A DNA stretch of 64,000 bases, taken from positions 297,292-361,291 of the forward strand of contig JAWAEV010000001.1 in assembly GCA_038891095.1 (NCBI GenBank), given 5' to 3'. The position numbers and the translations under genes were made by a program. The notes beneath the pieces were generated by a model. The model was given only the letters and a program-made list of their open reading frames with translations, was not told the DNA's origin and ran no database searches. The stretch comes from Candidatus Altiarchaeota archaeon. GTDB taxonomy: Archaea > Altiarchaeota > Altiarchaeia > IMC4 > QMZM01. Position 1 is the first letter of the stretch; each line of letters begins with the position of its first letter. Of this stretch, positions 1,761 to 63,042 are shown piece after piece.

Positions 1761-1832
1761 CAGTAGGTTTAAATGTAGTCGTTTATCTTTACATTAGCAT
1801 TTTAATTTCAATTTTCATATAATTTTCTTGCT

Positions 1833-2831: not shown

Positions 2832-2864
2832 ATTTTTATTTCTAAAATTTAATATCTATGTGAA

Positions 2865-3455: not shown

Positions 3456-3559
3456 TTCTCGAGTTTATCACATCTTCAGTTTTGTTTAAGATATACCTTG
3501 CAATGTTTTTCCTTGATCAACCAAGATTTTGATATAATAAAAAATTTATTTAAAAAAAT

Positions 3560-7198: not shown

Positions 7199-7208
7199 GA
7201 AATATATT
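7199..7208 (+). promoter_or_regulatory. TATA-like box (aaatatatta) about 25 nt upstream of tRNA-Pro
   Basis: AT-rich TATA-like element at the spacing expected for an archaeal promoter upstream of the tRNA 5' end at 7227. Confidence 0.3.
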
Positions 7209-7226
7209 ATTAATAGTTTTAATTTT

Positions 7227-7300
7227 GGGATCGTGGGGTAGTTTGGTTATCCTTCGAGCTTTGGGAGCTCGCGACCGGAGTTCAAATCTCCGCGATCCCA
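7227..7300 (+). tRNA. tRNA-Pro (anticodon UGG)
   Basis: Hand-folded cloverleaf. Acceptor GGGATCG pairs with CGATCCC. Anticodon stem CGAGC/GCTCG with loop TTTGGGA gives anticodon TGG. T-arm CGGAG-TTCAAAT-CTCCG. Discriminator A, CCA not encoded. GC-rich relative to flanks. Confidence 0.85.
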
Positions 7301-7317
7301 CTATGCTCATTTTTAAA

Positions 7318-18325: not shown

Positions 18326-19240
18326 TTAAAATCCTTTGGATGCTAAATCCAAAAGTATCTGCAATTTTTTCTTTGTTGTTTCTTGGATAAATTGCAATTC
18401 TTTCTCTTTTCTTTCAGGTCTAAAAAGATGTCTATATCTGCCCTGAATTTTCAAGTAATCTTCAACCGGTTTTAAATTTTCAATACTTGTTGGTAGATTT
18501 ACAAAATGTTTTCCATTTATAATTTCATATAAAGGAAAAACTCCTGTGAGAACAGCTAACTTTGCTATTTCAACAGTTTTTTCTGTAGGATAACGCCAAC
18601 CAGTTGGGCATGGAGCAAAAAGATTTATAAAAGTTGGTCCTTTTGTTTCAACTGCTTTTCTTATTTTTTTAAATGCATCTAATGGAAAAGCAATTGATGC
18701 CTGAGCTAAATATGCTGAGTTATGCGCTGCCAATATGTGCATTATGTCCTTCTTACATTGCTCTTTTCCTATGGAAAATTTTCCTGCAGGGGAAGTTGTT
18801 GTTGATGCAGCAAAAGGTGTCGCACTACTGCGCTGTACGCCTGTATTCATATAAGCTTCGTTCTCATAACAGATATAGCAAAAATTATGGCCTCTTTCAA
18901 ATGCTCCTGAAAGATGCCCAAAGCCTATATCATAAGTAGCTCCATCACCACCTATAGCAATAACTTTCACATCTTCTTTTCCCTTAAATTTTAAAGCTTC
19001 AGAAATTCCTGATGCTATTGCTGCAGCATTTTCAAAAGCACCGTGAATCCATGGTAATTTCCATGATGTTTCTGGATATGGAGTTGATACAACTTCCATA
19101 CAACCAGTTGCTTCGACTAAGATAGAATTCTTTCCTGCTGCTTTTGTTATTAGCCTAAGTGCTATTGCTGCTCCACATCCAGAACATGCTCTATGCCCTG
19201 AAACAAAATATTCCTCTTCTGGTAAGCTAAATATTGCCAT
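18326..19240 (-). CDS. porB: Pyruvate:ferredoxin (2-oxoacid) oxidoreductase beta subunit
   Basis: 304 aa. TPP-binding motifs CSGCGAAIALR and IGGDGATYDIGFG. Last gene of the por operon. Confidence 0.85.
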   Translation of the reverse strand: MAIFSLPEEEYFVSGHRACSGCGAAIALRLITKAAGKNSILVEATGCMEVVSTPYPETSWKLPWIHGAFENAAAIASGISEALKFKGKEDVKVIAIGGDGATYDIGFGHLSGAFERGHNFCYICYENEAYMNTGVQRSSATPFAASTTTSPAGKFSIGKEQCKKDIMHILAAHNSAYLAQASIAFPLDAFKKIRKAVETKGPTFINLFAPCPTGWRYPTEKTVEIAKLAVLTGVFPLYEIINGKHFVNLPTSIENLKPVEDYLKIQGRYRHLFRPERKEKELQFIQETTKKKLQILLDLASKGF

Positions 19241-19249
19241 TTTAGAATA

Positions 19250-20419
19250 TTAGAATATCCACTCTTGCTTTTTTACTTTTCCTTCCTTTACTAATTTATA
19301 AATTTTTTCTATATTCCCAAAGGTTATATCTCTACCACCTAAGCCAACTATAAAACTGCTTATTTCTGGTTTTTTTTCATTATAAAAAGCAGACCTTATT
19401 TCATCAAATACCGGAGAATTTGCACCTAAGGAAATTGCTCTTTCAATTACAGCAATTTTTTCCATATCTTTTAAATTTTTAACTATTTCTTCCTTTGGAA
19501 ATGGTCTATAGCATAATATCTTCAAAAGCCCTACTTTCTCACCCTTCTCGCGAAATTTATCTATCATGAATTTTAAAGTTCCGCATAAAGAGCCAAGAGC
19601 AACAAATGCAACTTTAGAATCTTCAAGTTTATATGCTTCAACAACATCATAATTTTTTGGCCTTGAATTTTCTATCTTAACTGGAAATTTTTCTGAAAAT
19701 TCTTTAAAGACTTCTTTTATTTTTGTTATAGAATTTTCAATAGCCTTTTGTTGAGAATATTTTATCTCCATAAAATGTGAAGGAAAAGCTATTGGTCCAA
19801 AAGTCATTGGTTTATCAGGATCAAGATATATTTCTGCTTTATATTCTGGTAGAAATTCATCTATTTCCTCTTGTGCAGGGATAAACACTGGCTCATAAAC
19901 ATGCGAAAGTGTAAATCCATCTATACAAACCATTGAAGGTAGCAAAATATCTTTGCTCTCAGAAATTTTATATTGCATTATTGTAAGGTCAAAAGCCTCT
20001 TGTGAAGTTTCAGCATAAAATTGTAACCAGCCAGAATCTCTTACAGAAATAGAATCCTGGTGGTCACCCCAAATATTTATCGGTGCTGATAAAGCTCTAT
20101 TTGCAACTGTCATTCCAATTGGTAAACGCAATCCTGAAACAACAAAAAGAACCTCAAACATTAATGCCAATCCTTGTGAAGATGTAGAAGTGTAAGTTCT
20201 TACTCCTGTAGCTTCTGCACCTAAACAAGCAGATAATGCCGAGAATTCTGACTCAACATTTATATATTTTGCATTAATTTCATGATTTGCAACCATCTCT
20301 GAAAGTCTTTCAACGATATGAGTCTGCGGTGTTATAGGATAAGCTGCAATAACCCCTGGTTTTATCATCTTAACTGCTTCTGCTATAGCATGTGAAGTTT
20401 CCAAAATTTTTTTAGTCAT
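19250..20419 (-). CDS. porA: Pyruvate:ferredoxin oxidoreductase alpha subunit
   Basis: Start taken at MTKKILETSHAIAEAV (ATG at 20419), forming an ATGA overlap with the porD stop. GVIAAYPITPQT is the classic PorA N-terminus. Confidence 0.85.
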   Translation of the reverse strand: MTKKILETSHAIAEAVKMIKPGVIAAYPITPQTHIVERLSEMVANHEINAKYINVESEFSALSACLGAEATGVRTYTSTSSQGLALMFEVLFVVSGLRLPIGMTVANRALSAPINIWGDHQDSISVRDSGWLQFYAETSQEAFDLTIMQYKISESKDILLPSMVCIDGFTLSHVYEPVFIPAQEEIDEFLPEYKAEIYLDPDKPMTFGPIAFPSHFMEIKYSQQKAIENSITKIKEVFKEFSEKFPVKIENSRPKNYDVVEAYKLEDSKVAFVALGSLCGTLKFMIDKFREKGEKVGLLKILCYRPFPKEEIVKNLKDMEKIAVIERAISLGANSPVFDEIRSAFYNEKKPEISSFIVGLGGRDITFGNIEKIYKLVKEGKVKKQEWIF

Positions 20420-20718
20420 TTTTTCTCTTTTATCATAGTTATTGCTTTTTTTGGACACTCATTTGCACAAATTCCACAACCTTTACAATAATCTAAATTT
20501 GCATCGAATTTCCCATTATTTTTTTTGAAAATACAACCCTCGGGACAAAAAACCCAACAAAGACCGCAAGATATGCATTTATCAAAATCAAAAACAGGTC
20601 TATATGCTCTCCATGCTCCTGTTTTTGTTATCACTGTTGAACCATTACTTTCCAAAATTCCAGCAAGTGTTATTTCTTTTTCATTAACATTTATCTTTAT
20701 TTTTTCAAATTCAGTCAT
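20416..20718 (-). CDS. porD: Pyruvate:ferredoxin oxidoreductase delta subunit (2x[4Fe-4S] ferredoxin)
   Basis: 100 aa. Two CxxCxxCxxxCP motifs (CISCGLCWVFCPEGC, CKGCGICANECP). Confidence 0.8.
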   Translation of the reverse strand: MTEFEKIKINVNEKEITLAGILESNGSTVITKTGAWRAYRPVFDFDKCISCGLCWVFCPEGCIFKKNNGKFDANLDYCKGCGICANECPKKAITMIKEKK

Positions 20719-21259
20719 TTTTAGATTTTATAGCTTTCTCATAAGTTTTTTCAACTAATAAAATATTTTTATTTGCAATCTCTTCTGGAAATTGTTCTTT
20801 AATAGCTTTACAAATTGATTCTTTACTTACTAAATTTGTAAAAGCAGAAAATGCTCCTAAAATTCCTGTGTTTACTATATCTGCACCTAAAATTTCTAAT
20901 GCTGAAGAGGAGACATCAACTGTAAAAATTTTTACATTTATATTTTTAAATTCGCTTGGCTTTTTTTCTGTGTTTATTATTGCCATACCATTTTCTTTTA
21001 AGCCTTCAAATATATTTGATACATAAAACAAAGTTGGGTCCATAACAACCAATATGTCTGGCTCATAAACTGCTGTTCTCTCTTTTATAAATTTGTCAGA
21101 AATTCTTGTGAAAGCCTGTACTGGAGCACCTCGTCTTTCAACACCAAATATTGGAAATGCCTGTGAAAATTTACCATCATAGAATGCTGCTATTGCTAAG
21201 ATTGTTGCAGCAGTAACAGCACCCTGACCACCTCTACCATGAAACCTTATCTCTTTCAA
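20711..21259 (-). CDS. porG: Pyruvate:ferredoxin oxidoreductase gamma subunit; probable TTG start
   Basis: The conserved PorG N-terminus (M)KEIRFHGRGGQGAVTAA begins at an in-frame TTG at 21259. The longer ATG-initiated ORF adds a hydrophobic non-homologous leader and would collide with the divergent rpl35ae start. Confidence 0.7.
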   Translation of the reverse strand: MKEIRFHGRGGQGAVTAATILAIAAFYDGKFSQAFPIFGVERRGAPVQAFTRISDKFIKERTAVYEPDILVVMDPTLFYVSNIFEGLKENGMAIINTEKKPSEFKNINVKIFTVDVSSSALEILGADIVNTGILGAFSAFTNLVSKESICKAIKEQFPEEIANKNILLVEKTYEKAIKSKND

Positions 21260-21329
21260 TTTTTTATGATTGAATATTAATATGATTTTAAGTTTAAGTT
21301 TAAGCATATATGTAAAGTACAGAAGAAAA

Positions 21330-21593
21330 ATGATAGGCATTATAGCAAATTATCGTGGGAGTAAAAGAACTCAACATAAAAGTCAGATTATTGTAATTCC
21401 AGAAGGGATAACAAAAAGGGAAGATGCTAAAAAACTCTTAGGTAAAAGAGTTGAATGGATAAGTAAAACAGGTAAAAAAATTTCAGGAAAAATTTTAAGA
21501 GTTCATGGTAATAGAGGTGCAGTAATAGTGAAATTTGAAAGAGGACTTCCAGGACAAGCATTAACAACAAGTGTAGAAATTTTTGATAAATAA
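21330..21593 (+). CDS. rpl35ae: 50S ribosomal protein L35Ae
   Basis: About 87 aa from MIGIIANYRGSKRTQH. IVIPEGI...GKKISGKILRVHGNRGAVIVKFERGLPGQA matches the L35Ae beta-barrel family. Confidence 0.8.
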   Translation: MIGIIANYRGSKRTQHKSQIIVIPEGITKREDAKKLLGKRVEWISKTGKKISGKILRVHGNRGAVIVKFERGLPGQALTTSVEIFDK

Positions 21594-21834: not shown

Positions 21835-23157
21835 ATGAAAAAGAAGGTTTTAATTTTAGGAGCTGCTGGAATGGATTACCATGTGTTTAATACTGTTTTT
21901 CGTGATAATCCTAACTATGAAGTTGTTGGATTTACAATGGCTGCAGAGCAAAATCTTGGAACTGTTGGAGAGCTGAGAAATTATCCAAAAGAGTTAGCTG
22001 GTAAATTATATCCTAATGGAATACCCACTTATAGAGAGGAGGATATGGAGAAAGTTATAAAAGAAAAAAATGTAGATATGGTTGTGCTTGCTTATTCTGA
22101 TATTTCTCATAACTATGTTATGCATTTAGCTTCAAGGGCATTAGCAAGTGGTTCTGACTTTAAGTTAATTGGCACAAAACATGCAATGCTAAAATCAAAA
22201 AAGCCCATTGTCGCAGTTTGTGCTGTTCGTACAGGTTGTGGTAAAAGCCAATTTTCACAAAAAATTACTGAAATTTTAAAGAAAGAATTTGGTAAGAAGG
22301 TTGTTGCCATTAGAGAGCCAATGCCGTATGGAAATTTAATTGAACAGAAATGTATGAGATTTTCATCTTATGAAGATTTAGATAAGTATAAATGCACAAT
22401 TGAAGAGAGAGAAGAATATGAGGCATATATTGAAAAAGGCTTAACAATTTATAGTGGAGTTGACTATGGAGAAATTTTGAAAGAAGCTGAAAAAGAAGCT
22501 GAAATTATTGTTTGGGATGGTGGTAATAATGAAATTTCATTTTATGTTCCAAATTTACAGATTGTAATTGCTGATCCACATCGCGCAGGACATGAGTTGC
22601 TTTATCACCCTGGTGAAGTAAATGCAAGAATTGCAAATGTTGTTATTATAAACAAAGTTAATACTGCTAAAAAAGAGAATGTTAAAATTGTTAAGGAGAA
22701 TATAAGAAAGATTAATCCAAGAGCTGAAATTATTGAGGCTTCTTCTGTTGTGAAAGTAGAACAACCTGAGAAGGTAAAAGGTAAAAAAGTTCTGGTTATT
22801 GAGGATGGGCCAACTTTAACTCATGGAGATATGCCCTATGGAGCAGCAACAGTTGCAGCAAGAGAACTTAACTGCGAGATAGTTGATCCAAGAGAAAATG
22901 CAGTTGGCTCAATAAAAGAAACTTATAAAAATTTCCCACATCTTGATAAGATATTACCAGCAATGGGGTATAGCAAAGAGCAAATGAAAGAGCTTGAAGA
23001 TACCATAAATAAAACTGAATGTGATTTTGTTCTTGTTGGAACTCCAATAAATTTATCAAAATTACTTAAGATTAATAAACCTGCTGTAAGAGTTAGGTAT
23101 GGCCCAGATGAAAAAACAGTAGATAGATTGAGAGAAATTCTTAAAAGAGTCATATAG
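21835..23157 (+). CDS. P-loop protein of the cyclic 2,3-diphosphoglycerate synthetase-like / COG2403 'predicted GTPase' family (tentative)
   Basis: 440 aa. N-terminal Rossmann-like LILGAAGMDYH, central P-loop AVRTGCGKSQ, C-terminal VLVIEDGPTLTHG. Family assignment from memory, not verified. Confidence 0.35.
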   Translation: MKKKVLILGAAGMDYHVFNTVFRDNPNYEVVGFTMAAEQNLGTVGELRNYPKELAGKLYPNGIPTYREEDMEKVIKEKNVDMVVLAYSDISHNYVMHLASRALASGSDFKLIGTKHAMLKSKKPIVAVCAVRTGCGKSQFSQKITEILKKEFGKKVVAIREPMPYGNLIEQKCMRFSSYEDLDKYKCTIEEREEYEAYIEKGLTIYSGVDYGEILKEAEKEAEIIVWDGGNNEISFYVPNLQIVIADPHRAGHELLYHPGEVNARIANVVIINKVNTAKKENVKIVKENIRKINPRAEIIEASSVVKVEQPEKVKGKKVLVIEDGPTLTHGDMPYGAATVAARELNCEIVDPRENAVGSIKETYKNFPHLDKILPAMGYSKEQMKELEDTINKTECDFVLVGTPINLSKLLKINKPAVRVRYGPDEKTVDRLREILKRVI

Positions 23158-43436: not shown

Positions 43437-44039
43437 TTATGTAAATATTCCTTGCTCTCTGCATTCAAATTTTTCAATGCCCGTTGTTGTTTTAGTTATT
43501 TTCTCATATAACGAATTTCCTTTTGAATCAATAGCAACTATTAAAGGACCAAAATTTTTAACTTCAAGCTCATAAACAGCTTCTGCTAAGCCTAAATCCT
43601 CCCAATAAACATTTTTTATTTTTTTAATCTGTTTAGTTGTAATAGCTCCACAACCACCAGTCATTGCTAAATAAACACAAGAATTCTTCATTGCTTTTAC
43701 AACTTCTCCACTCATACCACCTTTACCAATTATTGCTCTAATTTTGAATTTTTTTATTATCTTCTTAGCATAGGGGTTTAGCCTTGTTGAAGTTGTAGGT
43801 CCAATTGAGAAAATTCTAAAATTGTTTTTTTCTTTTTTTGCTATTGGTCCAGAATGGAGAATAACAGAATTTTTCAATTTGAAAGGCAGTTCTTTTCTTT
43901 TTTCCAAAAATTTTAAAATTCTGATGTGTGCTTTATCTCTTGCTGTAAAAATTATTCCTGAAATATATACTATATCAGCAACTTTTAGCTCTTTTATTCT
44001 TTCTTCGTTTATAGGAACATTTAATTTGAATTTTTTCAT
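43437..44039 (-). CDS. fumB: Fumarate hydratase class I (Fe-S hydro-lyase) beta/C-terminal subunit
   Basis: Start at MKKFKLNVPINEERIKELKVADIVYISGIIFTARDKAH, the classic beta-subunit N-terminus. 1-nt gap from the alpha-subunit stop. Confidence 0.8.
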   Translation of the reverse strand: MKKFKLNVPINEERIKELKVADIVYISGIIFTARDKAHIRILKFLEKRKELPFKLKNSVILHSGPIAKKEKNNFRIFSIGPTTSTRLNPYAKKIIKKFKIRAIIGKGGMSGEVVKAMKNSCVYLAMTGGCGAITTKQIKKIKNVYWEDLGLAEAVYELEVKNFGPLIVAIDSKGNSLYEKITKTTTGIEKFECREQGIFT

Positions 44040-44040
44040 T

Positions 44041-44904
44041 CTATGAAAATTTAACTTTTCCATTTGAGGAGATTCTAACATTTGCTCTTCTCATTGCCCA
44101 ACATCCAAAAGAAATAGCAATTGGCAAACTTGCTATATGAGTATCTGCAGTTTCTATCGCAACTTTCAAACAAGTTATATCACCACCTAAACCCATTGTA
44201 CCAATTCCTAATTTATTTATCTCATTTAAAATTTCTTCTTCAAGTTTTGCAATCTCTCTATTCTTATTTTTTTCATCTAATTTCCTTAGTAATGCTATCT
44301 TAGCTAACTTCATTGCTTGTTCTGAGCTGCCACCAATACCAACTCCGAGAATTATTGGCGGACAAGAATTTTTTGATTTCTCTTTAACTTTTTCAAGAAT
44401 GAATTTTTTTATTCCTTCAGTAGTTTCATTTGGACTTAGATTTTTATAGGAATTCATATTTTCAGAACCAGCACCTTTAGCAATTAAACTTATTTCAATT
44501 TCTCTTTTATTTGGGATAAATTCGAAATTTATCTCTGGCTGCTTATTTCCCAAATTTGAATTTCTTGGCTTTCTATTTATTGCATCAACTAAATTTTCTC
44601 TCAGTGGAATTTTTTTTGTTGCGATTACTATTGCACTTTTTATTGCTCTCTCAATCTCTGTAATCTTTGTTTCATCACCAAGTCTTACATAAAATGTAAG
44701 AAGTCCTGTATCCTGACAAATTGGTAAAGAATTTTTCCTTGCAAATTTTACATTCTTTAAAATTTCTCCTAATTGGATTCTCGCTAATTCATTTGTTTCT
44801 CTTTTATAAGCCTCTCTTAACTTTTTTTCAACATCTCTTGGTAATGAAGTTTCCACTCTCTTAATCAATTCAAAAATTTCATTAACAAGCTTTGTCTTTT
44901 TCAT
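44041..44904 (-). CDS. fumA: Fumarate hydratase class I (Fe-S hydro-lyase) alpha/N-terminal subunit
   Basis: 287 aa. Has LPICQDTG (the CQDTG cluster-ligand motif) and GGDITCLK. Confidence 0.85.
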   Translation of the reverse strand: MKKTKLVNEIFELIKRVETSLPRDVEKKLREAYKRETNELARIQLGEILKNVKFARKNSLPICQDTGLLTFYVRLGDETKITEIERAIKSAIVIATKKIPLRENLVDAINRKPRNSNLGNKQPEINFEFIPNKREIEISLIAKGAGSENMNSYKNLSPNETTEGIKKFILEKVKEKSKNSCPPIILGVGIGGSSEQAMKLAKIALLRKLDEKNKNREIAKLEEEILNEINKLGIGTMGLGGDITCLKVAIETADTHIASLPIAISFGCWAMRRANVRISSNGKVKFS

Positions 44905-49998: not shown

Positions 49999-50253
49999 CT
50001 ATTCTAAAATTTTGTAAACAACATCATTTGGTCTGACTCTTTCATTTACTTTAATACCAATTTCTTGTCCGGCTTTTGCTACTTGGACTGGATTTCTTTC
50101 AATTTGCATCGACTCAACAACTTGCTCTATATTAGTTGTATGCCCCTCAATTGAAATTTTATCCCCAACTCTAAGCTCTTCTTCAAGTTTTATCCCAGCA
50201 ACTCCAACTTTGGAAAAATATGTAAAAACAACTCCAACTCTTTTCTTTTCCAT
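49999..50253 (-). CDS. Small beta-barrel protein resembling translation-factor domain 2 (EFTu-D2-like), tentative
   Basis: About 84 aa from MEKKRVGVVFTYF. GDKISIEGHTT...VAKAGQEIGIKV resembles the PF03144 barrel. Confidence 0.3.
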   Translation of the reverse strand: MEKKRVGVVFTYFSKVGVAGIKLEEELRVGDKISIEGHTTNIEQVVESMQIERNPVQVAKAGQEIGIKVNERVRPNDVVYKILE

Positions 50254-50300: not shown

Positions 50301-50570
50301 ATGCAAATTGAAATTGCAGATATATTAAATTTTGTTTATTTAATTTATAACGCCCTCCGCAAAGGAATTCAATTAATTCTTGAAGAAACAATAATAAAGG
50401 CTTCTCCTAAATTAGCAGAAAAATATGCAGACGCTCTCTCATTGTTAATAACAATAACTGCAATTTGGCTCATAATAGAATTCTCAACAAGTTTGAAGAA
50501 TATTGTAAAGGCGGTTGTTATTTTTGGTTGGATTTTACTTATAATTAGTATTGCAATAAGTATTTTTTAA
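50301..50570 (+). CDS. Small membrane protein (2 TM), unknown
   Basis: 89 aa, hydrophobic C-terminal half. Confidence 0.25.
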   Translation: MQIEIADILNFVYLIYNALRKGIQLILEETIIKASPKLAEKYADALSLLITITAIWLIIEFSTSLKNIVKAVVIFGWILLIISIAISIF

Positions 50571-50902
50571 ATTTAGCACCTCGATATATTTTTTGACCCA
50601 TCTATTCAAAGACTTAAAACATTTTATCAGTTCTTTTCCTGAGATTGTTAAAGAGTACTCGACTCGGGAATCCTATTAAAACCTCTCTAAAAGATTTCCA
50701 TTTCTTTCCTAAAATTTTTATTATATTAGTTAGAGGGCATGTTTTTTCCATCTTTGTTATTTTTCTTTTTTTGAGATATTTTCATGATATATGCTCTTCA
50801 TTTTTTGTTGTTAATATTTAAGTATACATTATATATTTACTTTAAAAAGGTAATTAACAATACTATAAAAAGTTACTATTAGGTATTAGGGGGAATTAAA
50901 AA

Positions 50903-51307
50903 ATGGGAACAGGAAATTTGATAAAAGGAATTTTGGTATTTGCAGTTGTTATAATTGTTGGATTAGGTATTTGGTTTTTTGTTATAAACACAGGAAACAC
51001 TTCAAAAACATCTCCTCCCGAAACAGACCTTAGTGAAGTGAAATTCTACACTTTGCAAGATGTCTCAAAGCATAACACGAAGGAAGATTGTTGGATGGTG
51101 ATTGATAAGAGGGTATATGATGTCACAAATTTTATTGCTCTTGGGAAGCATGGTCCTGCAATACTAGAAGGCTGCGGAAAAGATGCAACTAAATTATTTA
51201 ACAGTAGGACAAGGGATGATGGAACAAAAATTGGTTCTGGAACACCACACTCAGAAACTGCAAGAAATCTCACAAGAAATTATTACATTGGAAACTTGAA
51301 AGAATAG
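50903..51307 (+). CDS. Membrane-anchored cytochrome b5-like heme-binding domain protein
   Basis: 134 aa. N-terminal TM helix, then FYTLQDVSKHNTKEDCWMVIDKRVYDVTNF...GKHGPAILEGCGKDATKLF...GTPHSETARNL..YYIGNL. The cyt b5 fold pattern has both axial His positions present (KHG in place of HPGG, and the HS motif). Confidence 0.55.
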   Translation: MGTGNLIKGILVFAVVIIVGLGIWFFVINTGNTSKTSPPETDLSEVKFYTLQDVSKHNTKEDCWMVIDKRVYDVTNFIALGKHGPAILEGCGKDATKLFNSRTRDDGTKIGSGTPHSETARNLTRNYYIGNLKE

Positions 51308-51335
51308 ATGGAAAGAATATGATATTTTTTATACA

Positions 51336-52658
51336 ATGAAAAGAGAGGATAAAAACAAAATAGTAAAAACAATCATATTTGTTTCCATATCTTTTTCTCT
51401 ATTTTTTATTTTTTATACTGTTTTTGCCCATACAAATTCCAGTAGGGTCTCAGCAAACTATTTTTTGTATTTAATGGGAAGATTAATGGGCCTTATCAGT
51501 TTTCTTTTTTTGTCTATTCTTATAATTTCTGGTGACACAGCAAGATTCTTTGATAGATTTTTTGGGATGGATAGGATAATAAAATTTCAGAGAAAATTTT
51601 CTTTGATAATTTGTATATTTGTTGTACTGCATCCTGTATTTTTTATTGCAGCAGAGAGTGTACCTGCTCTTGATTATCTGCTGCCAAACTTCTCAGTACT
51701 TCCTTTAGCTTTGGGCACATTGTCTTTTTATATTTTTATTGTTATACTGATAGCATCAAGACTATATAAGAGAATATCATATGATGGATGGCAATATCTC
51801 CATGTTCTGACATATATTCTTTTCTTTTTCGTTTTGTATCATGCTGTAAATATTGGTTCTTCTTACAATTCCTCGGCACTTGTAAAAACAATTTATTTTT
51901 TCATGTTGATTTTTGTGTTGATAGGTATAGTATATAGAACAAATTATAAGCTCAAGCAAAGAGGTTTGAAATTTTTTGTTAAAAATATTGAATGGGAAAC
52001 AAAAGACGCTTTTACTTTAACTTTAAAGCCAAACAAACAATTTTCATTCAAAGCAGGACAATTTTGTTTTTTGAGACTGAAAAAAGATAAGTTGTATGCA
52101 AGACATCCATTTACAATATCTAGCTCTCCAAAGGAAGAAAATTTGAGCTTTACAATGAAGTTGACAGGTAGATTTACAAAAGCGGCTTCGGAGTTAAAAA
52201 AAGGGGAAGAAGTTATTGTAGACGGTCCTTTTGGTATATTCACAATTGAAGATCATGAAAAAGACTTAGTATTCATTGCAGGCGGTGTTGGAATTGCTCC
52301 TTTTATGAGTATGATAAAAAATCAACTTGAGAGTGAGAAAAAACAGAACGTCCTTTTGTTGTATGGCTCAAAAACGAAAGACGATATAATATTCAAAAAA
52401 CAATTGGATAGTGTAAAAAAGGTTTGGTTTAAGAAAGTGTATGTGTTGGATAAAGTTGATAGTAATGATACTTCTACAGAAAAATTTGAAAAAGGGCCTA
52501 TAAGAAAAGAAATGATAGAAAGTTATGTTAAAGATGTGAAAAATTCATTGTTTTACATTTGTGGTCCAGAACCTATGAAGGAATATGTGAAAAAAATATT
52601 GCTATCCGAACTAAAAGTCAGTAAAAATAACATAAGGATTGAAAGTTTCTTTTGGTGA
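51336..52658 (+). CDS. NOX/ferric-reductase-like flavocytochrome (FRD transmembrane di-heme domain plus FAD/NAD(P)-binding FNR-like domain)
   Basis: 440 aa. The TM region has paired His (HPVFF..., YLHVLTYILFFFVLYHAV). FAD motif RHPFTISSSP, NAD motif VFIAGGVGIAPF, C-terminal ICGPEPM. Confidence 0.7.
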   Translation: MKREDKNKIVKTIIFVSISFSLFFIFYTVFAHTNSSRVSANYFLYLMGRLMGLISFLFLSILIISGDTARFFDRFFGMDRIIKFQRKFSLIICIFVVLHPVFFIAAESVPALDYLLPNFSVLPLALGTLSFYIFIVILIASRLYKRISYDGWQYLHVLTYILFFFVLYHAVNIGSSYNSSALVKTIYFFMLIFVLIGIVYRTNYKLKQRGLKFFVKNIEWETKDAFTLTLKPNKQFSFKAGQFCFLRLKKDKLYARHPFTISSSPKEENLSFTMKLTGRFTKAASELKKGEEVIVDGPFGIFTIEDHEKDLVFIAGGVGIAPFMSMIKNQLESEKKQNVLLLYGSKTKDDIIFKKQLDSVKKVWFKKVYVLDKVDSNDTSTEKFEKGPIRKEMIESYVKDVKNSLFYICGPEPMKEYVKKILLSELKVSKNNIRIESFFW

Positions 52659-52675: not shown

Positions 52676-53194
52676 TCATTTACTTGAATGTAAAGATTTG
52701 ATTCGCTCCTCGCCATTTATCTTTTCTATGACTTCTAATGTTCCTTTTGGAACTAAATTTTTCCATTTTCTTCCTGATATGATTCTTTTTCTTATCTCTG
52801 TGCCAGAATAGTTCTTTCTGTTGAAAAGAGGAGTTGTTCTAACCTCGTAATTTCTATCTTTGAATAGTCTTTTTTCTAATTTTCCATTTGTGTAAACAAC
52901 ATCAAATTTTCCAACAATTTTCTCGACATGAGAGACCCATTTTTTGTCATCTCCAATGTCTGGAATTTCGAAAATTTCATAAGGAATAGAGATATTTCCT
53001 CGCAATGATTTTTCAATCATCTCCCCTCTCTCAAAAGCTGAGAAAGGATTTTCTTCTGTATTTTTAAATTGCGAACTACCTATACCAATTTTTATCTTTA
53101 TTATATCTTTTGAATTTGATGCTTTTTTTATCAACATTAAATGTCCTAAGTGAAATGGTTGAAACCTTCCTATGATCAATGCTATTTTTTTCAT
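52676..53194 (-). CDS. nadM: Nicotinamide-nucleotide adenylyltransferase (archaeal NadM type)
   Basis: About 173 aa from MKKIALIIGRFQPFHLGHL, the (H/T)xGH nucleotidyltransferase motif in its archaeal NMNAT context. The longer ORF adds a Cys-rich non-homologous leader. Confidence 0.85.
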   Translation of the reverse strand: MKKIALIIGRFQPFHLGHLMLIKKASNSKDIIKIKIGIGSSQFKNTEENPFSAFERGEMIEKSLRGNISIPYEIFEIPDIGDDKKWVSHVEKIVGKFDVVYTNGKLEKRLFKDRNYEVRTTPLFNRKNYSGTEIRKRIISGRKWKNLVPKGTLEVIEKINGEERIKSLHSSK

Positions 53195-53284
53195 ACAATT
53201 TAACTTCTGAATATTATATATAAGTGAGATTCCGGAGAAAATTAATTGGAAGCACTCGTTTTTAGGTATATAAAAACACTTAAG

Positions 53285-54799
53285 ATGGAAATTGGTCAAG
53301 TAATTGGAGCAACAACATTGAGAGCATTTCGCTTTGTTATAAAAGAGGGCCAAGAAAAATATGCTAAGAGAGATGAATTTGTTTCTGTAAAAGAATCCGT
53401 AACTGGAAAGGAAGTTTTAGGTGTAATAAAAGAGATCACAATCTCAAATGAACTCTTGCCGGAAGAATTTGGTAGAGATTTAAGGTTGGAGGAAATTGCT
53501 CTTAATGAGGGCGAGTATCCTGTGCCAACAGTCAAAATTCTTGGCTATGAGGAAGATGGTAGCATAGAGCTTCCAAGATATGGTATTAAGCCTGGAACAA
53601 GCGTTGAATTAGCAAGTGATGAAACTCTGAGAAAAATTTTAAGGCAAAATGAAAAAAAATCTGCATTTATTGGCACTTTATCAACAAGAAAGTCTGTGCC
53701 AGTTTACATTTCACTGAATGATATGATCTCAAGACATTGCGCAATTCTTGCGATGACAGGAGCTGGAAAAAGTTACACTGTTGGTGTTATCATTGAAGAA
53801 ATAATGAAAAAGAAGGGCTCAGTGATTGTTGTTGATCCTCATGGTGAATATAAAAATATAAAAATTGAAGGTTCAAAAACAAAAGTCTATAACATTAAAG
53901 GTGAGAATAAGATAAAGGTTGAGGCTTCTTCTCTAAGAATAGGTGATTTTTCAAATTTAATTCCAGACATTACTGATCCTCAAAGAGACCTCTTAGATGA
54001 AATACTTAGCAGAATTTCAAAATTCTATGAAAAATTTAATTTAGATGCAATCATAAAAATTTTAAATTTGCTTTATGATATTAAGGAGGGCCTACCCTCT
54101 TCTGGAGAGGAGATAATTCCTGATAGGGGACTTAAAGATTTAGCAAAAAAAGTTTCTACTGCGACGATTGGAGCATTACTTAGGAGAGTTGAAAGGTTAA
54201 GAAGAATGGAAATTTTTGATGTAGAAGGCACAGCAATTGAAGAAATTGTTGCAAGAAATCAATTAACTGTTTTAGATCTTTCTGATGCAGATGAGAGAGT
54301 TTCTGAGACAATAGTTGCATCTATTGCAAGAAAAATTTTTGATATGCGAAGGAGATATGTTAAGGATAATGAAGGTGGTTTGGATATACCAACTTTTCTA
54401 ATAATTGAGGAAGCACATAATTTTGCTCCAAGAGTTACTGAAGAGAGAGAGGTTTTATCAAAGTATGTATTGAGAAAAATTGCAAGAGAAGGAAGAAAAT
54501 TTGGCGTAGGCCTTTGTATAGTCTCACAGCGTCCTGGGAAATTAGATTCTGACATTCTTTCCCAATGTAACACACAGATAATAATGAAAATTGTAAATCC
54601 TTCTGATCAGGAATATATAAGGCAATCTGTAGAGAGTGTAACAGAAGATATAGTTAGAGATTTACCTTCTTTGGCAAGAGGGGAAGCAATAATTGTTGGC
54701 TCTGCAATAAAATTGCCAGTGACTGTTAAAATAAGAAAAAGAGAGACTGAAGTTTTGGGTAATGATATTGATATAGTTGATGCTTGGAGTAAAGAATGA
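53285..54799 (+). CDS. herA: HerA-like ATPase (COG0433; HAS-barrel plus FtsK/HerA P-loop domain)
   Basis: About 505 aa from MEIGQVIGATTLRAFRFV (HAS-barrel-like N-terminus). Walker A AILAMTGAGKSYTVGV, Walker B LIIEEAHNF, C-terminal VSQRPGKLD arginine-finger region. Confidence 0.7.
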   Translation: MEIGQVIGATTLRAFRFVIKEGQEKYAKRDEFVSVKESVTGKEVLGVIKEITISNELLPEEFGRDLRLEEIALNEGEYPVPTVKILGYEEDGSIELPRYGIKPGTSVELASDETLRKILRQNEKKSAFIGTLSTRKSVPVYISLNDMISRHCAILAMTGAGKSYTVGVIIEEIMKKKGSVIVVDPHGEYKNIKIEGSKTKVYNIKGENKIKVEASSLRIGDFSNLIPDITDPQRDLLDEILSRISKFYEKFNLDAIIKILNLLYDIKEGLPSSGEEIIPDRGLKDLAKKVSTATIGALLRRVERLRRMEIFDVEGTAIEEIVARNQLTVLDLSDADERVSETIVASIARKIFDMRRRYVKDNEGGLDIPTFLIIEEAHNFAPRVTEEREVLSKYVLRKIAREGRKFGVGLCIVSQRPGKLDSDILSQCNTQIIMKIVNPSDQEYIRQSVESVTEDIVRDLPSLARGEAIIVGSAIKLPVTVKIRKRETEVLGNDIDIVDAWSKE

Positions 54800-55235: not shown

Positions 55236-55868
55236 ATGATTTCAGAGATAATAAATAACTCGCTCTCTTCGAATACATATATTTTGTTTGATGAAAAAAC
55301 AGCAATAATTGATCCAGGAATTTCAGAGAAAAAATTGTTAGGTAAAATTAATGAAACAGCTGTGAGTTATATAATTTTAACACATTGTCATTATGACCAT
55401 ATCGCTTGTGCAAAAAAATTAAAAGAAATTACAAATGCAAAAGTTTTAGCTCATTACTTCTCTGAGGAAATTTTTAGAAGTTCTCTCAGGAAAAAAATTA
55501 TACTTTCCGAACTTTTTAGTGCAGAGGATATTAAACTTGAAATTGACATAAAATTGAAAGAAGGTGACGAAATAAATTTAGGTTATATGAAATTAAAAAT
55601 TCTTCATACTCCAGGACATACAAAAGATAGCATTTGCCTCTATGAAGAAAAAACAAAGTCATTATTTTCTGGAGATACTGTCTTTAAAGACAGTATCGGT
55701 AGAGCGGACTTTCCAACTGGTAATTTTAAAGAGCTTAAAATTTCAATAGAAAAATTGATTAATTTAGATGAAAATTGTGGCATAGAAAAAATTTATCCCG
55801 GACATGGAGAAACTTTCACTTCCAGAGATATAAAAGAAATTTACAAATACTTTTTCAAAGATGGTTAG
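55236..55868 (+). CDS. MBL-fold metallo-hydrolase (hydroxyacylglutathione hydrolase-like)
   Basis: 210 aa. HCHYDH (HxHxDH), HTPGHT and D/H in later motifs. Confidence 0.75.
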   Translation: MISEIINNSLSSNTYILFDEKTAIIDPGISEKKLLGKINETAVSYIILTHCHYDHIACAKKLKEITNAKVLAHYFSEEIFRSSLRKKIILSELFSAEDIKLEIDIKLKEGDEINLGYMKLKILHTPGHTKDSICLYEEKTKSLFSGDTVFKDSIGRADFPTGNFKELKISIEKLINLDENCGIEKIYPGHGETFTSRDIKEIYKYFFKDG

Positions 55869-57573: not shown

Positions 57574-57794
57574 ATTTCAACTTCAAATCCTTTCTCTTTT
57601 AAAATTCTAATTAATTCTTCTAAATTTTTTCCTTGCTTTTTGATTCCTTGCCTTAATGTTGTTATTCTACCAAGAGTATTTCTCATAACAGGATTTTTTA
57701 CACCTAAAAAACCTCGTTCATAAAGTATTTCAATTAGCTCAGGGTATTGATCTGTGAGTTCAAAAATGCTCTTATCAATACTTATCTTTTTCAT
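57570..57794 (-). CDS. DUF1858-like small protein (hemerythrin/hybrid-cluster-associated domain family, tentative)
   Basis: 74 aa. Distal gene of a three-gene overlapping operon with the DUF438-like and hemerythrin genes. Confidence 0.4.
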   Translation of the reverse strand: MKKISIDKSIFELTDQYPELIEILYERGFLGVKNPVMRNTLGRITTLRQGIKKQGKNLEELIRILKEKGFEVEI

Positions 57795-58951
57795 AGCAAT
57801 CTTTTTTCACCTTCAAGTTTTCTTATCTCTGTGATATCTTGTATTACTTCTAATGTGCCTAAATACACTCCATTTTGGTCTCTTATAGCGAAATATCTTA
57901 TATGCACAAATCTACCTTTAAAATTTATCCAAAATTCTGCAACATCTCTTTTGCCTGATTTAAAATCATTTAATATTTCTTCAACTTTATCTAAGCTTTG
58001 TGGTGGATGACAATTCCTTACATTTCTCTTAAGAACTGCTCTTGGTCTTAGGAATATTCTATTTTTTGTTTCTGAGAAATATGCAACTGTGTCATTTTTA
58101 TCAATGAATGTTATATCAACTGGTAAATTATTCAATATGTTCACCAACTCTTCTAATGATAATTCTCCTGAAGGAAATTCTATTATTCCGTCATGGTAAA
58201 CTGGCTCCTCAACTGTTGTTCTTTTGATTTCTTCAACAAGTTTTTCTATGTCTTTTGGAGCTTCTATATAACAGTAGCCAACATCCCTACTCTGTTTTAG
58301 AATTTCTATCCAATCATCAATTTTTAGTTTTTCTAAAGACACTGGAAACAAAATGTTCTCTTCTTTGAAAATCATCCCCTCAATTTCTTCAATTAGAGGT
58401 TTTAAAAAATGTGTTAGGTCTTCAGTTTCAACAATGTCAACTTTATTAATCGCATCTCTTAACATCTGCCTTATATCATTGTGCTTACCCCACATAACTT
58501 TTGATGGTCCATAAAATCCCGCTCTCTCTAAGTAGGGGAAAAGCAATTGCTCTTTTCTTGTATAATGCTTATCTATATCTCTGAGTTTGTATAACAATTC
58601 TCTAATTTTCTCTTTTTTTCTTTCTCCCTTTAGTTGAGATAAAATTTTTTCTATTTCTCTATTCTCAAGTTTAAAAATGTATATTGGATGCGCATTTGAA
58701 ACTTCTTTTAGCTCCTGCTTTAATGCTGTTTCGAAAAGCAGTGCATGTACATTACAAAATTTTTTTATTTCCTCAACTGTGATGCCTTCATTTATCAATG
58801 ATTGCTCAATTTCAGCGATTTCATGAGAGGTTATTGTGCCAATTTCTTTAAGTAGGATTTCTTCTGCTTTTTCAAAACTTAAGCCTTGATGTAGTTGCTT
58901 TATTATTTCTTTTACAACTTCTTTCTTTTTGTTTTTAAGAATTTCGGCCAT
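57791..58951 (-). CDS. DUF438-like protein (PAS-like/hemerythrin-like multi-domain sensor family, tentative)
   Basis: 386 aa. 4-nt overlaps on both sides. This gene order with DUF1858 and hemerythrin recurs in anaerobes (from memory). Confidence 0.4.
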   Translation of the reverse strand: MAEILKNKKKEVVKEIIKQLHQGLSFEKAEEILLKEIGTITSHEIAEIEQSLINEGITVEEIKKFCNVHALLFETALKQELKEVSNAHPIYIFKLENREIEKILSQLKGERKKEKIRELLYKLRDIDKHYTRKEQLLFPYLERAGFYGPSKVMWGKHNDIRQMLRDAINKVDIVETEDLTHFLKPLIEEIEGMIFKEENILFPVSLEKLKIDDWIEILKQSRDVGYCYIEAPKDIEKLVEEIKRTTVEEPVYHDGIIEFPSGELSLEELVNILNNLPVDITFIDKNDTVAYFSETKNRIFLRPRAVLKRNVRNCHPPQSLDKVEEILNDFKSGKRDVAEFWINFKGRFVHIRYFAIRDQNGVYLGTLEVIQDITEIRKLEGEKRLL

Positions 58952-59489
58952 TTCTTCTAAGATAAATTTTTCCTAATTTTTCAACTAAGTTGTGATATTT
59001 CCTATGAACACCTTCGCCAATTTCTTCTCTTTCAAATTTTTTAAATTTATTAAAAAGCTCATTTTGAGTTTTATCTGAGAGATGTGCATCTGCCACCATG
59101 TAGAGAATATTATTCTCCTTAGATATATGTTCCCTCAGAAGAGTTATATAGCTAATTGCATTTTTTTCTATCTTTTCTTTATCTTTTTGTTCAATACCAC
59201 TTGCTATTTCTCTCACATATGCTCTACCAATTTCATGTTCAGTGAGCATTACACCTATTGGACCATCTTCCTTTGGAATTCCTGCTCTCTCCATTGCAGG
59301 AAATAATAAATCTTCCTCTTTATGATGATGACACTTATCAGCAAATGTTCTAATGAAATCAACTATTTCAGCTAAATGCTCGTAGTTAACTTCTTTTTCT
59401 ATTTTTGAATTTTCAGAAATTTTTTCTAAGATATCCAACATTTTTTCTATAATTTTATGCTCCTCCTTGAGTATTTTTGTAATTTTCAT
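58935..59489 (-). CDS. Hemerythrin HHE cation-binding domain protein
   Basis: 184 aa. Three H/E-rich di-iron ligand motifs: ILKEEHKIIEK, CHHHKEEDLLFP and EHEIGR...EHISKENNILY. Confidence 0.7.
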   Translation of the reverse strand: MKITKILKEEHKIIEKMLDILEKISENSKIEKEVNYEHLAEIVDFIRTFADKCHHHKEEDLLFPAMERAGIPKEDGPIGVMLTEHEIGRAYVREIASGIEQKDKEKIEKNAISYITLLREHISKENNILYMVADAHLSDKTQNELFNKFKKFEREEIGEGVHRKYHNLVEKLGKIYLRRNGRNS

Positions 59490-61953: not shown

Positions 61954-63042
61954 ATGTTAAAATCTCTGATAAATGAAGTATTTAAGAAGGATGATGAAAA
62001 AGCAAGTGGTGAATCTCAGGAATTTTTTGGATCTGAGAGGATTAGGATAACGATTCTTGGAACTGGGGGTGCAGGAAATAATACTGTTAATAGACTTTGT
62101 AGAATTGGAATTTCAGGTGTTGATTTAGTGGCTTGTAATACAGATATGCAAGATCTGAAGAAAATTGATGATAAAATCCAGAAAGTTCTTATTGGGGAGA
62201 AGCTTACTCATGGCTTAGGAGCAGGAGGCTTTCCAGATATTGGAGAAAAAGCAGCTGAAATGTCAAAAGAGAAAATTGCAAAAGCACTTGAAGGGACTCA
62301 CCTTCTTTTTTTAACTGCAGGCATGGGTGGTGGTACTGGCACAGGGTCTGCACCGGTTATAGCACAAATCGCTCATGACTTAGGAGCAATTGTTGTTGCA
62401 GTTGTGACATTTCCGTTTAAACTTGAGCGTGCTAGGCTTGAGAAAGCAAGACAAGGAATTGACAACTTAAGAAAGGTCTCAGATACTGTGATAATAATTG
62501 ATAATAATAAACTAGTTGAGTATGTACCGAATTTACCAATAGATAAAGCATTTATGGTTGCTGATGAAGTTATCGCAAGAGCAGTTAAGGGAATTAGCGA
62601 TACTATTCTTGAACCCTCACTTATAAATTTGGATTTTGCAGATATAAAAGCAGTTATGAGCCATGGAAAAATAGCGATGATGAGTATTGGTGATGGTCAA
62701 GGACCAAATAGGGTTGAGATGGCAGTTAAAAATACTCTCTCCCAGCCATTGTTAGATGTTGACTATACTGGGGCAAAAGGTGCACTTATCCATGTTACTG
62801 GTGGTGAGAGCATGACAATTGGAGAAGCAACAATGGTAGGGAAGCTATTGACTAAGGATATGAGCCATGATGCAAATGTAACATTTGGTGCGAGAGTTGA
62901 TCCTAAGCTGAAGGATAAGTTAGAAGTTTTTGGGATTTTCACAGGTGTTAGGTCACCAAACATTCTTGGGCGAGAAGAAATTTTAGCAGGTCAAGAGCTA
63001 TACACTCCTAAGATTGATAGCTGGGATATAGAAACCCTTTAA
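61954..63042 (+). CDS. ftsZ2: FtsZ paralog 2 (tubulin/FtsZ GTPase)
   Basis: 362 aa. ITILGTGGAGNNTVNRL and GMGGGTGTGSAPVIAQ signatures. Distinct from paralog 1; the catalytic T7-loop region is present (NLDFADIKAVM). Confidence 0.85.
   Translation: MLKSLINEVFKKDDEKASGESQEFFGSERIRITILGTGGAGNNTVNRLCRIGISGVDLVACNTDMQDLKKIDDKIQKVLIGEKLTHGLGAGGFPDIGEKAAEMSKEKIAKALEGTHLLFLTAGMGGGTGTGSAPVIAQIAHDLGAIVVAVVTFPFKLERARLEKARQGIDNLRKVSDTVIIIDNNKLVEYVPNLPIDKAFMVADEVIARAVKGISDTILEPSLINLDFADIKAVMSHGKIAMMSIGDGQGPNRVEMAVKNTLSQPLLDVDYTGAKGALIHVTGGESMTIGEATMVGKLLTKDMSHDANVTFGARVDPKLKDKLEVFGIFTGVRSPNILGREEILAGQELYTPKIDSWDIETL

Follow-up and report, generated by a model that had tools for sequence, protein, structure and literature searches.

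A cytochrome b5 gene and a three-histidine ferric reductase gene in an Altiarchaeota genome: a probable electron-export module that recurs in DPANN archaea and CPR bacteria

Introduction

Transmembrane electron export by ferric reductase domain (FRD) proteins to an extracytoplasmic carrier is an already known kind of system. In this study, we analysed a locus that is probably of this kind in an archaeal genome. The DNA is a 64,000-nucleotide stretch of Candidatus Altiarchaeota archaeon (assembly GCA_038891095.1, contig JAWAEV010000001.1, positions 297,292 to 361,291 of the forward strand), and this whole stretch is called the window. The locus consists of a cytochrome b5 gene followed by a gene for a six-helix FRD protein with a fused flavin dehydrogenase domain, here called the reductase.

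Bacterial NADPH oxidases (NOX) have been defined by four His residues together with FAD and NADPH motifs (Hajjar et al. 2017, PMC5676040). A survey stated that bacterial long FRD forms retain all four His; three-His patterns, in which Arg takes the first position, were assigned to YedZ and STEAP1 as stand-alone proteins (Zhang et al. 2013, PMC3591440). For MsrQ, one outer heme on His91 and His164 has been assigned, together with an FMN at the inner site, which is lined by His151, Trp147, Ser135, Arg77, and Arg78 (PMC12525009). A single outer heme with a flavin at the inner site has been described for both MsrQ and STEAP (PMC12525009, PMC3591440). It has been proposed that proteins combining PF01794 and PF00175 feed extracytosolic carriers (PMC8238504). 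In addition, Hehenberger et al. (2021) found putative ferric reductase genes near b5-domain genes in 185 genomes of the candidate phyla radiation (CPR). They described its function as unknown and reported no such pairing beyond CPR (bioRxiv 10.1101/2021.11.17.468889).

DPANN archaea and Patescibacteria have been reported to have no heme biosynthesis. CPR and DPANN genomes have also been reported to have no complete electron transport chains (PMC7507113). We found no mention of the module in the DPANN genomics literature. Also not found described before were the three-His long form, the interchangeable b5/cupredoxin partner, and the cross-domain distribution that includes archaea.

Results and Discussion

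The two genes and the fold of the reductase

An earlier note, made from the DNA letters alone, had described two tandem heme-protein genes and a minus-strand open reading frame (ORF) upstream of them. All three ORFs were recovered in our ORF check. The b5 gene and the reductase gene lie in tandem on the + strand with a spacing of 28 nt, and 332 nt separate the b5 gene from the preceding + strand ORF. Coordinates given here are positions in the window; those with L-numbers refer to loci from a scan of GTDB species representatives or to comparison contigs. Helices were taken from AlphaFold2 (AF2) models.

50903-51307, + strand: cytochrome b5 of the b558 type, 134 aa (Pfam Cyt-b5, E = 5.5e-18)
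50927-50995, + strand: membrane anchor of b5, about residues 9-31, inside the N-terminal hydrophobic helix 6-32 (AF2 model)
51044-51304, + strand: heme domain of b5, residues 48-134 (Pfam, AF2)
51336-52658, + strand: reductase, 440 aa (Ferric_reduct, FAD_binding_8, and NAD_binding_1)
51336..51950, + strand: six-helix ferric-reductase domain, residues 1-205 (Pfam Ferric_reduct 1.3e-10, AF2 helices)
51972..52250, + strand: FAD-binding beta-barrel, residues 213-305 (Pfam FAD_binding_8 9.4e-11, FAD_binding_6 1.5e-5)
52263..52658, + strand: NAD(P)H-binding Rossmann-type domain, residues 310-440 and stop (Pfam NAD_binding_1 3.8e-20)

No terminator-like site was seen in the 28-nt gap, a result of weak weight, as the scan was built for sigma-70 and the host is archaeal. 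The two genes would form a single operon, as part of an electron-export reading that we hold, taken as a whole, to be reasonably probable.

The Ferric_reduct, FAD_binding_8, and NAD_binding_1 matches of the reductase all exceeded the curated Pfam cutoffs. The same was true for Cyt-b5 (PF00173) in the partner, with 65.2 bits vs a cutoff of 23.7, so the domain assignments of the earlier note held. The FAD motif RHPFTISSSP lies at residues 256-265, starting at R256, and contains HPFTI (257-261), which fits the bacterial NOX pattern H[PSA]F[TS][LIMV]. The barrel aligns to the dehydrogenase domain of SpNOX. Residue conservation was counted over 173 reductase family sequences; H257 was found in 170/173, and P258 and F259 were found in 173/173. 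The NAD(P)H motif GGVGIAPF lies at residues 316-323 and contains the bacterial NOX motif for NADPH (GVGIAP, 317-322), with G316, G317, and G319 invariant. A conserved C-terminal ExFFW is also present in this domain.

The AF2 model of the reductase, with a predicted local distance difference test score (pLDDT) of 90.3, has six transmembrane (TM) helices at residues 3-30, 40-67, 78-106, 122-143, 149-172, and 181-209. These are followed by a ferredoxin-NADP+ reductase (FNR) fold, which gives the order of six TM helices and C-terminal dehydrogenase domain found in bacterial NOX. In a Foldseek search, the model was closest to SpNOX (TM score 0.72), followed by DUOX/DUOX1 and NOX2, and the dehydrogenase domain matched FNR, cytochrome b5 reductase (b5R), and NqrF domains. 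With the family profile, SpNOX was again the best solved relative (E = 5.5e-34), and the match spanned TM4-TM6 and the dehydrogenase domain. By the positive-inside rule, which the loops of the reductase follow, its N-terminus and dehydrogenase domain are predicted to lie inside, with H99 and H169 toward the outer face. The heme sites could be oriented in this way, as the earlier note had suggested.

The gene call in the NCBI metagenome-assembled genome (MAG; L059 3584-4756) begins the reductase 50 codons late, giving 390 vs 440 aa and losing TM1. L060 3434-4756 and the window start at 51336 give the full 440-aa protein. Many CPR orthologues are genuinely about 390-400 aa long and have no TM1, because the b5 stop codon lies only 0-5 nt upstream.

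Three invariant histidines and the inner cofactor site

H99, H156, and H169 are the only His columns of the membrane domain, and each is invariant in the family. TM5 contains H156-x12-H169, and TM3 has H99 alone.

51588-51590, + strand: Gln85, in place of the inner TM3 His
51630-51632, + strand: His99 (TM3), conserved in 173/173
51801-51803, + strand: His156 (TM5), conserved in 173/173
51840-51842, + strand: His169 (TM5), conserved in 173/173

Position 85 is Gln in 170/173 and Asn in 3/173, and it is never His. TM3 reads VYTV-H-KFTAFLSIILLIF-H-NF in SpNOX and IIKF-Q-RKFSLIICIFVVL-H-PVF in the window reductase. Q85 is aligned with the inner-heme TM3 His of SpNOX. This match was read from the printed SpNOX sequence and from a spacing of 14 residues that is identical in both proteins; the HMMER alignment was significant only over TM4-TM6. 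The two bis-histidyl pairs on TM3 and TM5 that define bacterial NOX are incomplete in all 173 sequences. Of the NOX-like architecture described in the earlier note, the FAD and NAD(P)H motifs and the likeness to SpNOX stood, but the di-heme FRD did not. The note had itself named loss of His ligands as counting against its reading, and one of the four is lost.

The outer TM3 His and the TM5 His-x12-His of MsrQ/YedZ are all present in the reductase. In the family profile, S135/W147/H151/H164 of E. coli MsrQ align with S141/W152/H156/H169, and the R77-H91 spacing of MsrQ equals the Q85-H99 spacing. Ser141, Trp152, His156, and Arg86 around the inner site are conserved; position 86, which corresponds to MsrQ Arg78, is Arg in 164/173 and Lys in 9/173. 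The conserved Arg that stands for the first canonical His in MsrQ/YedZ, its signature Arg77, is replaced by Gln85 (Asn in three sequences). Judged by its sequence, the window reductase is a fused MsrQ-type FRD plus FNR and not a canonical di-heme NOX/FRE enzyme. Near the outer face, a single heme would be held by His99 (TM3) and His169 (TM5). His156, Trp152, Ser141, and Arg86 would form the inner site, with Gln85 where NOX carries a heme ligand. By analogy with MsrQ and STEAP, this site more likely holds a flavin than a bis-His heme.

The cytochrome b5 partner

The AF2 model of b5 (pLDDT 87) consists of an N-terminal helix, a linker, and a b5 fold. By TM score (0.88) and root-mean-square deviation (1.6 A), its best Foldseek match was cytochrome b558 of Ectothiorhodospira (1cxy), and many eukaryotic b5 structures also matched. 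By sequence, 1cxy was likewise the best match to the b5 family profile (E = 1.7e-23), and the alignment pairs both Cys and both His. His83 (GKHGP) and His116 (TPHS) align with the axial His of the HPGG and GHS motifs in solved b5 structures. The membrane-anchored b5 with both axial His that the earlier note had described was confirmed, as was the b5 fold.

Cys63 and Cys91 align with the DDCW and WCG motifs of 1cxy and are invariant in b5 alignment A2. The Cys pair is kept in 110/120 b5 homologues and is absent from cytosolic eukaryotic b5. The two Cys of b558 reportedly form a disulfide in the 1cxy structure of 1999. The window b5 thus has both axial His and both Cys in common with b558 of Ectothiorhodospira vacuolata. 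They differ in that b558 is soluble and has no known function, whereas the window b5 has an N-terminal anchor. In addition, the window b5 subclade has GKHGP in place of HPGG in the first ligand motif and a 13-residue insertion before the second His.

A hydrophobic N-terminal segment was found in 108 of the 112 b5 homologues with a complete N-terminus, and a lipobox-like motif was found in 39 of them. In a Woesearchaeote locus (L010), a 604-aa protein has a signal peptide at its start and the b5 domain at its C-terminal end. Together with the orientation of the reductase, these anchors and lipoboxes and the L010 fusion indicate that the b5 heme and the outer heme of the reductase lie opposite each other. 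The sequence features suggest that the window b5 most likely faces outward and acts as the electron acceptor of the reductase.

The fused, secreted b5 protein of L010 (4159-5973) also contains DUF5667. This locus has a heavy-metal P-type ATPase and an ArsR-type regulator as neighbours (1813-3747 and 7203-7535), which hints at a metal link.

Distribution and exchange of the electron carrier

More than 1,300 reductase relatives were detectable, and the best 120 share 54-66% identity with the window protein. Named relatives among these 120 belong to DPANN (Nano-, Woese-, and Pacearchaeota) and to CPR (Nealson-, Staskawicz-, and Peregrinibacteria, and WWE3). We then compared 56 loci from GTDB species representatives, nearly all from CPR or DPANN, and clustered the neighbours within +/-3 genes of the reductase. 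The upstream same-strand slot was occupied as follows.

b5: 21/56 loci
Small N-terminally anchored cupredoxin: 20/56 loci
CcdA/DsbD_2 membrane protein: 3/56 loci
Slot beyond the contig end: 4/56 loci
Slot without b5, cupredoxin, or CcdA: 8/56 loci, one with a divergent HxlR gene and one with a CDGSH protein

Cupredoxins are typically extracytoplasmic. Of the comparative evidence, the interchange of heme (b5) and copper (cupredoxin) one-electron carriers in one operon slot speaks most strongly for the carrier as the extracytoplasmic acceptor of the reductase. Most partner cupredoxins have the type-1-like pattern C-x4-H-x4-Q/H/M, and two have the CuA-like pattern CxxxCxxxHxxM. The CuA-like proteins are archaeal (L039 5571-5981 and L048 5545-5913); the one in L048 also matches Pfam COX2, and no cytochrome oxidase was found near either gene. 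In a Parcubacteria locus, a 65-aa CDGSH-type iron-sulfur protein (CxC...CDGSH; L052 5700-5897) is encoded directly upstream of the reductase. From its sequence and position, it may be a third kind of partner.

Thioredoxin-like (Trx-like) genes were found upstream in 10 loci and DsbB-like genes in 6 loci. The fuller order in cupredoxin-type loci is a divergent HxlR gene, then Trx-like, DsbB-like, cupredoxin, and reductase genes. Co-directional genes for a Trx-like CxxC protein, a DsbB-like protein, a cupredoxin, and the reductase were present in L002, L003, L004, L007, L052, and L056, which include both CPR and DPANN. Within +/-3 genes, only b5, cupredoxin, Trx-like, DsbB-like, HxlR, and CcdA genes recurred; no recurrent third gene of the MsrP-like, oxidase, VIT1, ApbE, or FMN-binding kind was found.

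The b5 and reductase pairing is also present in at least four further DPANN genomes, as the archaeal loci L010, L013, L022, and L041. In a rough neighbour-joining tree without support values, archaeal and bacterial sequences interleave, several partner switches occur, and the window reductase clusters with a Woesearchaeote and a Patescibacterium. These sequence relationships indicate that the module is a recurrent feature of DPANN and CPR, widespread in both and shared horizontally between them, at 55-65% identity between archaea and bacteria. The earlier note had considered such a module unexpected in a reduced genome. This view did not hold, as the module recurs in DPANN and CPR and the b5 pairing had already been noted in CPR.

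Comparison with described systems

SpNOX (PDB 8qq7, 8qt6) and the window reductase both carry six TM helices and an FAD/NAD(P)H dehydrogenase domain in one polypeptide. The TM5 His-x12-His, the HPFT motif, and the GxGxxP motif are also common to both. However, SpNOX has His at both TM3 positions and two hemes, whereas the window family has Gln85 at the inner one. SpNOX also has Ala where the window family has Ser141, and identity is only about 21%. No dedicated carrier gene has been described for SpNOX.

In E. coli, MsrQ (YedZ) and Fre supply periplasmic MsrP. The window family resembles MsrQ in the three-His pattern and its spacing, in Ser and Trp at the inner site, and in its overall logic, by which NAD(P)H of the cytoplasm would serve a protein acceptor that is periplasmic or extracytoplasmic. 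Stress regulation is a further likeness: HprSR controls msrPQ, and HxlR accompanies the window family. MsrQ consists of an FRD only, is served by a separate cytosolic reductase, and has msrP beside its gene, whereas in the window the dehydrogenase domain is fused. The acceptor of MsrQ is a molybdoenzyme, in contrast to the proposed b5 or cupredoxin acceptor in the window family, and no MsrP-like neighbour was found in the window or in the 56 loci. STEAP1-4 also have an FRD without the inner TM3 His, with one outer heme, an inner flavin, and flow from NADPH to an extracellular acceptor. Unlike the window reductase, they have an N-terminal F420-type oxidoreductase domain and Gln at the TM5 inner position, are eukaryotic, and reduce metal ions directly.

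The MsrQ-like proteins (PF01794 + PF00175) that accompany ApbE-flavinylated FMN-binding proteins have the identical two Pfam domains and have been proposed to pass electrons from NAD(P)H to a small extracytosolic carrier encoded beside them (Meheust et al. 2021, eLife). Those carriers are flavinylated and occur mainly in Actinobacteria, whereas the window family uses a heme b5 or a copper cupredoxin in CPR and DPANN, where flavinylation is rare. The pFre-cytb5 clusters of CPR (Hehenberger et al. 2021) are similar in that a ferric-reductase-domain gene lies beside b5-domain genes and all the proteins are membrane-associated. These clusters require PF01794 within 10 kb of PF00173, and in the window the two genes are adjacent. 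The CPR members are 55-62% identical to the window reductase, so on sequence the pFre proteins very probably belong to the same family. The clusters were reported as CPR-specific, with a focus on Tyr-ligating MAPR-like b5 and two-component regulators, whereas the window and L010, L013, L022, and L041 are archaeal. The preprint did not report the three-His pattern, the cupredoxin alternative, or the outward topology. The archaeal loci correct the published statement that confines the ferric reductase-b5 pairing to CPR.

The three-His long form also breaks the rule of the 2013 survey, in which long forms have four His and two hemes and three-His forms are stand-alone MsrQ or STEAP. The reductase would be a natural fusion of MsrQ and Fre in which flavin-heme and heme-heme wires can be compared. 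The module is one of very few membrane redox systems common to CPR and DPANN.

A remnant of an HxlR-family regulator upstream of the module

The 45-aa minus-strand ORF at 50614-50751 contains the start of an HxlR remnant. A tblastn search with intact HxlR proteins from L018, L002, and L009 gave E = 3e-10 and 3e-5 (801-bp search space).

50586..50751, - strand: pseudogene of an HxlR-family regulator (tblastn with intact syntenic HxlR)
50751-50698, - strand: N-terminal 18 codons with the conserved Cys-Pro (HxlR residues 1-18)
50666-50586, - strand: C-terminal 27 codons in a shifted frame (HxlR residues 74-100, 63% identity)

A deletion has removed about 55 codons from the middle of the gene, and the recognition helix with them. 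A frameshift is also present, and both ends are kept. The internal deletion and the frameshift make 50586..50751 an HxlR pseudogene. The earlier note was right about the pseudogene, but the gene is not simply truncated. The remnant has no intact HxlR domain (PF01638), and the intact gene in L018 matches Pfam HxlR at 2e-25. As a stand-alone gene, the 45-aa ORF was rejected, with no Pfam or NCBIfam match and a lone match in the PDB, to HxlR-type YybR/HypR of B. subtilis (E = 1.3), aligned over the Cys-Pro.

An intact divergent HxlR gene lies upstream of the module in 8 related loci. We take the Cys of the HypR Cys-Pro motif to be the redox-sensing residue. If so, sequence comparison suggests that relatives of the module are probably controlled by a divergent Cys-containing HxlR of the HypR/YodB type. 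This would be a thiol-based oxidant or electrophile control that has been lost in the window genome.

Host context and heme supply

The window genes are archaeal (eIF-6, L31e, FEN1, RFC, CDC48, TruD, and two FtsZ genes, the latter at 17085-18245 on the - strand and 61954-63042 on the + strand), and G+C is about 31%. The identical locus is present in the NCBI MAG GCA_038850485.1, labelled Candidatus Altiarchaeota. The earlier note had described an archaeal host encoding pyruvate:ferredoxin oxidoreductase (PFOR) and fumarase, and these genes were found in the window.

18326-21340: alpha, beta, and gamma subunits of PFOR (annotation of window ORFs)
43437-44904: class I fumarase (annotation of window ORFs)

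No heme-biosynthesis or heme-uptake genes were found among about 45 annotated window ORFs. Since heme synthesis is reportedly absent from DPANN and Patescibacteria, the heme for at least two sites of the module must be scavenged, and the note's remark that heme has to be obtained by the host holds in this form. The module requires heme, and half of the time also copper, in hosts whose lineages reportedly do not synthesise heme, and it is apparently stress-regulated.

Three further genes lie less than 7 kb from the module. They encode an ODP-type metallo-beta-lactamase-fold protein (55236-55868, + strand), a DUF438-hemerythrin-PAS protein (57791-58951, - strand), and a stand-alone hemerythrin (58935-59489, - strand). 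By their domains, they are candidate sensors or scavengers of O2, NO, or iron in a presumed anaerobe, and their presence suggests that the host is exposed to O2 or oxidants.

Proposed electron path and role

We consider it rather probable that the two-gene module exports electrons from cytoplasmic NAD(P)H to a surface-tethered b5. From the domains, the His pattern, the folds, the synteny, and the topology signals, we infer the cofactor occupancy, the direction of flow, and the acceptor as follows. Cytoplasmic NAD(P)H would reduce the FAD of the C-terminal FNR-type domain, and the electrons would pass to an inner cofactor at the H156 site, for which a flavin is favoured and a heme is possible. 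They would then cross the ferric-reductase domain to the outer b heme (H99/H169) and reach the b5 heme, tethered outside by its N-terminal helix. Finally, b5 would pass them to an extracytoplasmic acceptor. Flow in the reverse direction, from outside to NAD(P)+, was rejected on thermodynamic grounds, given the potentials of b5 and cupredoxins vs NAD(P)+.

The module most likely provides a stress-responsive supply of reductant at the cell surface, which would act against oxidants or oxidised components of the envelope or would reduce metals. The HxlR regulators, the Trx, DsbB, and CcdA neighbours, and the hemerythrin and ODP genes in the window favour such a stress-linked role. Live alternatives are reductive metal acquisition and an outlet that re-oxidises NAD(P)H through external or host acceptors. 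The identity of the acceptor would tell surface oxidant defence, reductive metal acquisition, and host electron exchange apart.

Several points weigh against electron export by a flavin-heme wire to an outward b5. A heme with a single His ligand, or one ligated in some other way, could still occupy the inner site, and MsrQ was reportedly first described as carrying two hemes. In MsrQ and STEAP, the flavin phosphate is bound by an Arg, which is replaced by Q85 in the window reductase, and a second flavin would be unusual in a protein with FAD already in its dehydrogenase domain. The window b5 anchor has a weak charge bias: a single Lys lies on its N-side, and the C-side stretch is mixed and net-negative. 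In about 8 loci, no carrier gene could be recognised beside the reductase, so the enzyme may also act directly on a substrate. The DsbB neighbours point to oxidative and not reductive thiol chemistry and are not accounted for by the proposed electron path; DsbB normally needs a quinone, and CPR and DPANN are thought to lack quinones. The HxlR link derives from cupredoxin-type loci and a dead gene in the window. Heme supply is hard to explain in a lineage reported to have no heme synthesis.

Alternative explanations of the module

The likeness to SpNOX by sequence and by fold, the six TM helices, and the HPFTI and GVGIAP motifs, with which the protein passes the FAD and NADPH filters of Hajjar et al., would fit a canonical NOX or ferric reductase. 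Such an enzyme would have two bis-His hemes and would reduce O2 to superoxide or Fe(III) directly at the outer one, and b5 would be an accessory. FRE and STEAP enzymes do reduce metals, which makes metal reduction straight from the outer heme conceivable. However, this explanation is distinctly unlikely. Position 85 is Gln or Asn throughout the family, so the fourth His is missing, and a carrier is co-transcribed in about 44/56 loci, which points to the carrier and not O2 or iron as the immediate acceptor. Half of the family pairs with cupredoxins, whose potentials are typically too high for making superoxide, and this makes NOX-like superoxide production unlikely. A cytoplasmic pair of b5 reductase and b5, as on the eukaryotic endoplasmic reticulum, would serve a desaturase or oxygenase and would use the membrane domain mainly as an anchor. 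The dehydrogenase domain does match NADH-cytochrome b5 reductases (E about 1e-19 to 1e-21, TM score about 0.75), its partner is a genuine b5, and the charge bias at the b5 anchor is not decisive. We nevertheless regard this arrangement as very improbable. Many b5 homologues have lipobox or signal-peptide N-termini, the Cys pair is shared with b558, the L010 b5 is fused to a secreted protein, and cupredoxins occupy the b5 slot in other loci. A mere anchor would not need the heme ligands that are invariant in the membrane domain, and neighbour clustering of the 56 loci gave no recurring desaturase or P450.

The wiring of electron export could also serve as a fermentation-balancing outlet, in which NAD(P)H is re-oxidised via an external acceptor or the host surface in a minimal respiration-like pathway. 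The host is fermentative, with PFOR and fumarase, and members of the family occur almost exclusively in episymbiotic lineages of CPR and DPANN, which have exchanged it. The reported lack of complete electron transport chains in CPR and DPANN (PMC7507113) would suit an outlet of this kind. On the other hand, the module has no linked acceptor, quinone, or energy-coupling component, and the HxlR stress sensors of relatives and the two-component systems of CPR suit an inducible response more than a part of core metabolism. The module is also absent from many genomes of CPR and DPANN; among CPR, it is present in 1427/7645 genomes (bioRxiv 10.1101/2021.11.17.468889). This outlet is therefore unlikely as the main role. 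An equally tentative proposal, which we also think improbable, is that DPANN and CPR share by cross-domain transfer a one-heme-plus-flavin wire with swappable b5 and cupredoxin carriers that discharges fermentative reductant onto external or host-surface acceptors. If true, this wire would amount to extracellular respiration in rudimentary form, dependent on scavenged heme and confined to ultra-small episymbionts.

Other genes in the window

Two small genes sit between a DUF763 gene and the HxlR remnant and were predicted on all three contig copies. One (49999-50253, - strand) encodes 84 aa with weak likeness to EF-Tu domain 2 or the U32 C-terminal beta-barrel, and the other (50301-50570, + strand) encodes an 89-aa predicted membrane protein without a family. 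Convergent with the reductase gene is a cytidylyltransferase-like gene (52676-53353, - strand) with the motif GRFQPFHLGH, which probably encodes an archaeal nicotinamide mononucleotide adenylyltransferase, judging from its sequence. Its start is ambiguous (225 aa in the mechanical ORF vs 153 or 172 aa in the gene calls), and it does not adjoin the module in other loci. A second 440-aa ORF (21835-23157, + strand) was considered as a reductase paralogue and rejected as unrelated, with no Pfam match at E <= 1e-5. An ORF similar to AMP or thymidine phosphorylase (7225-8862, + strand; Glycos_transf_3, PYNP_C) overlaps tRNA-Pro (7227-7301) at its 5' end, so its true start lies further downstream.

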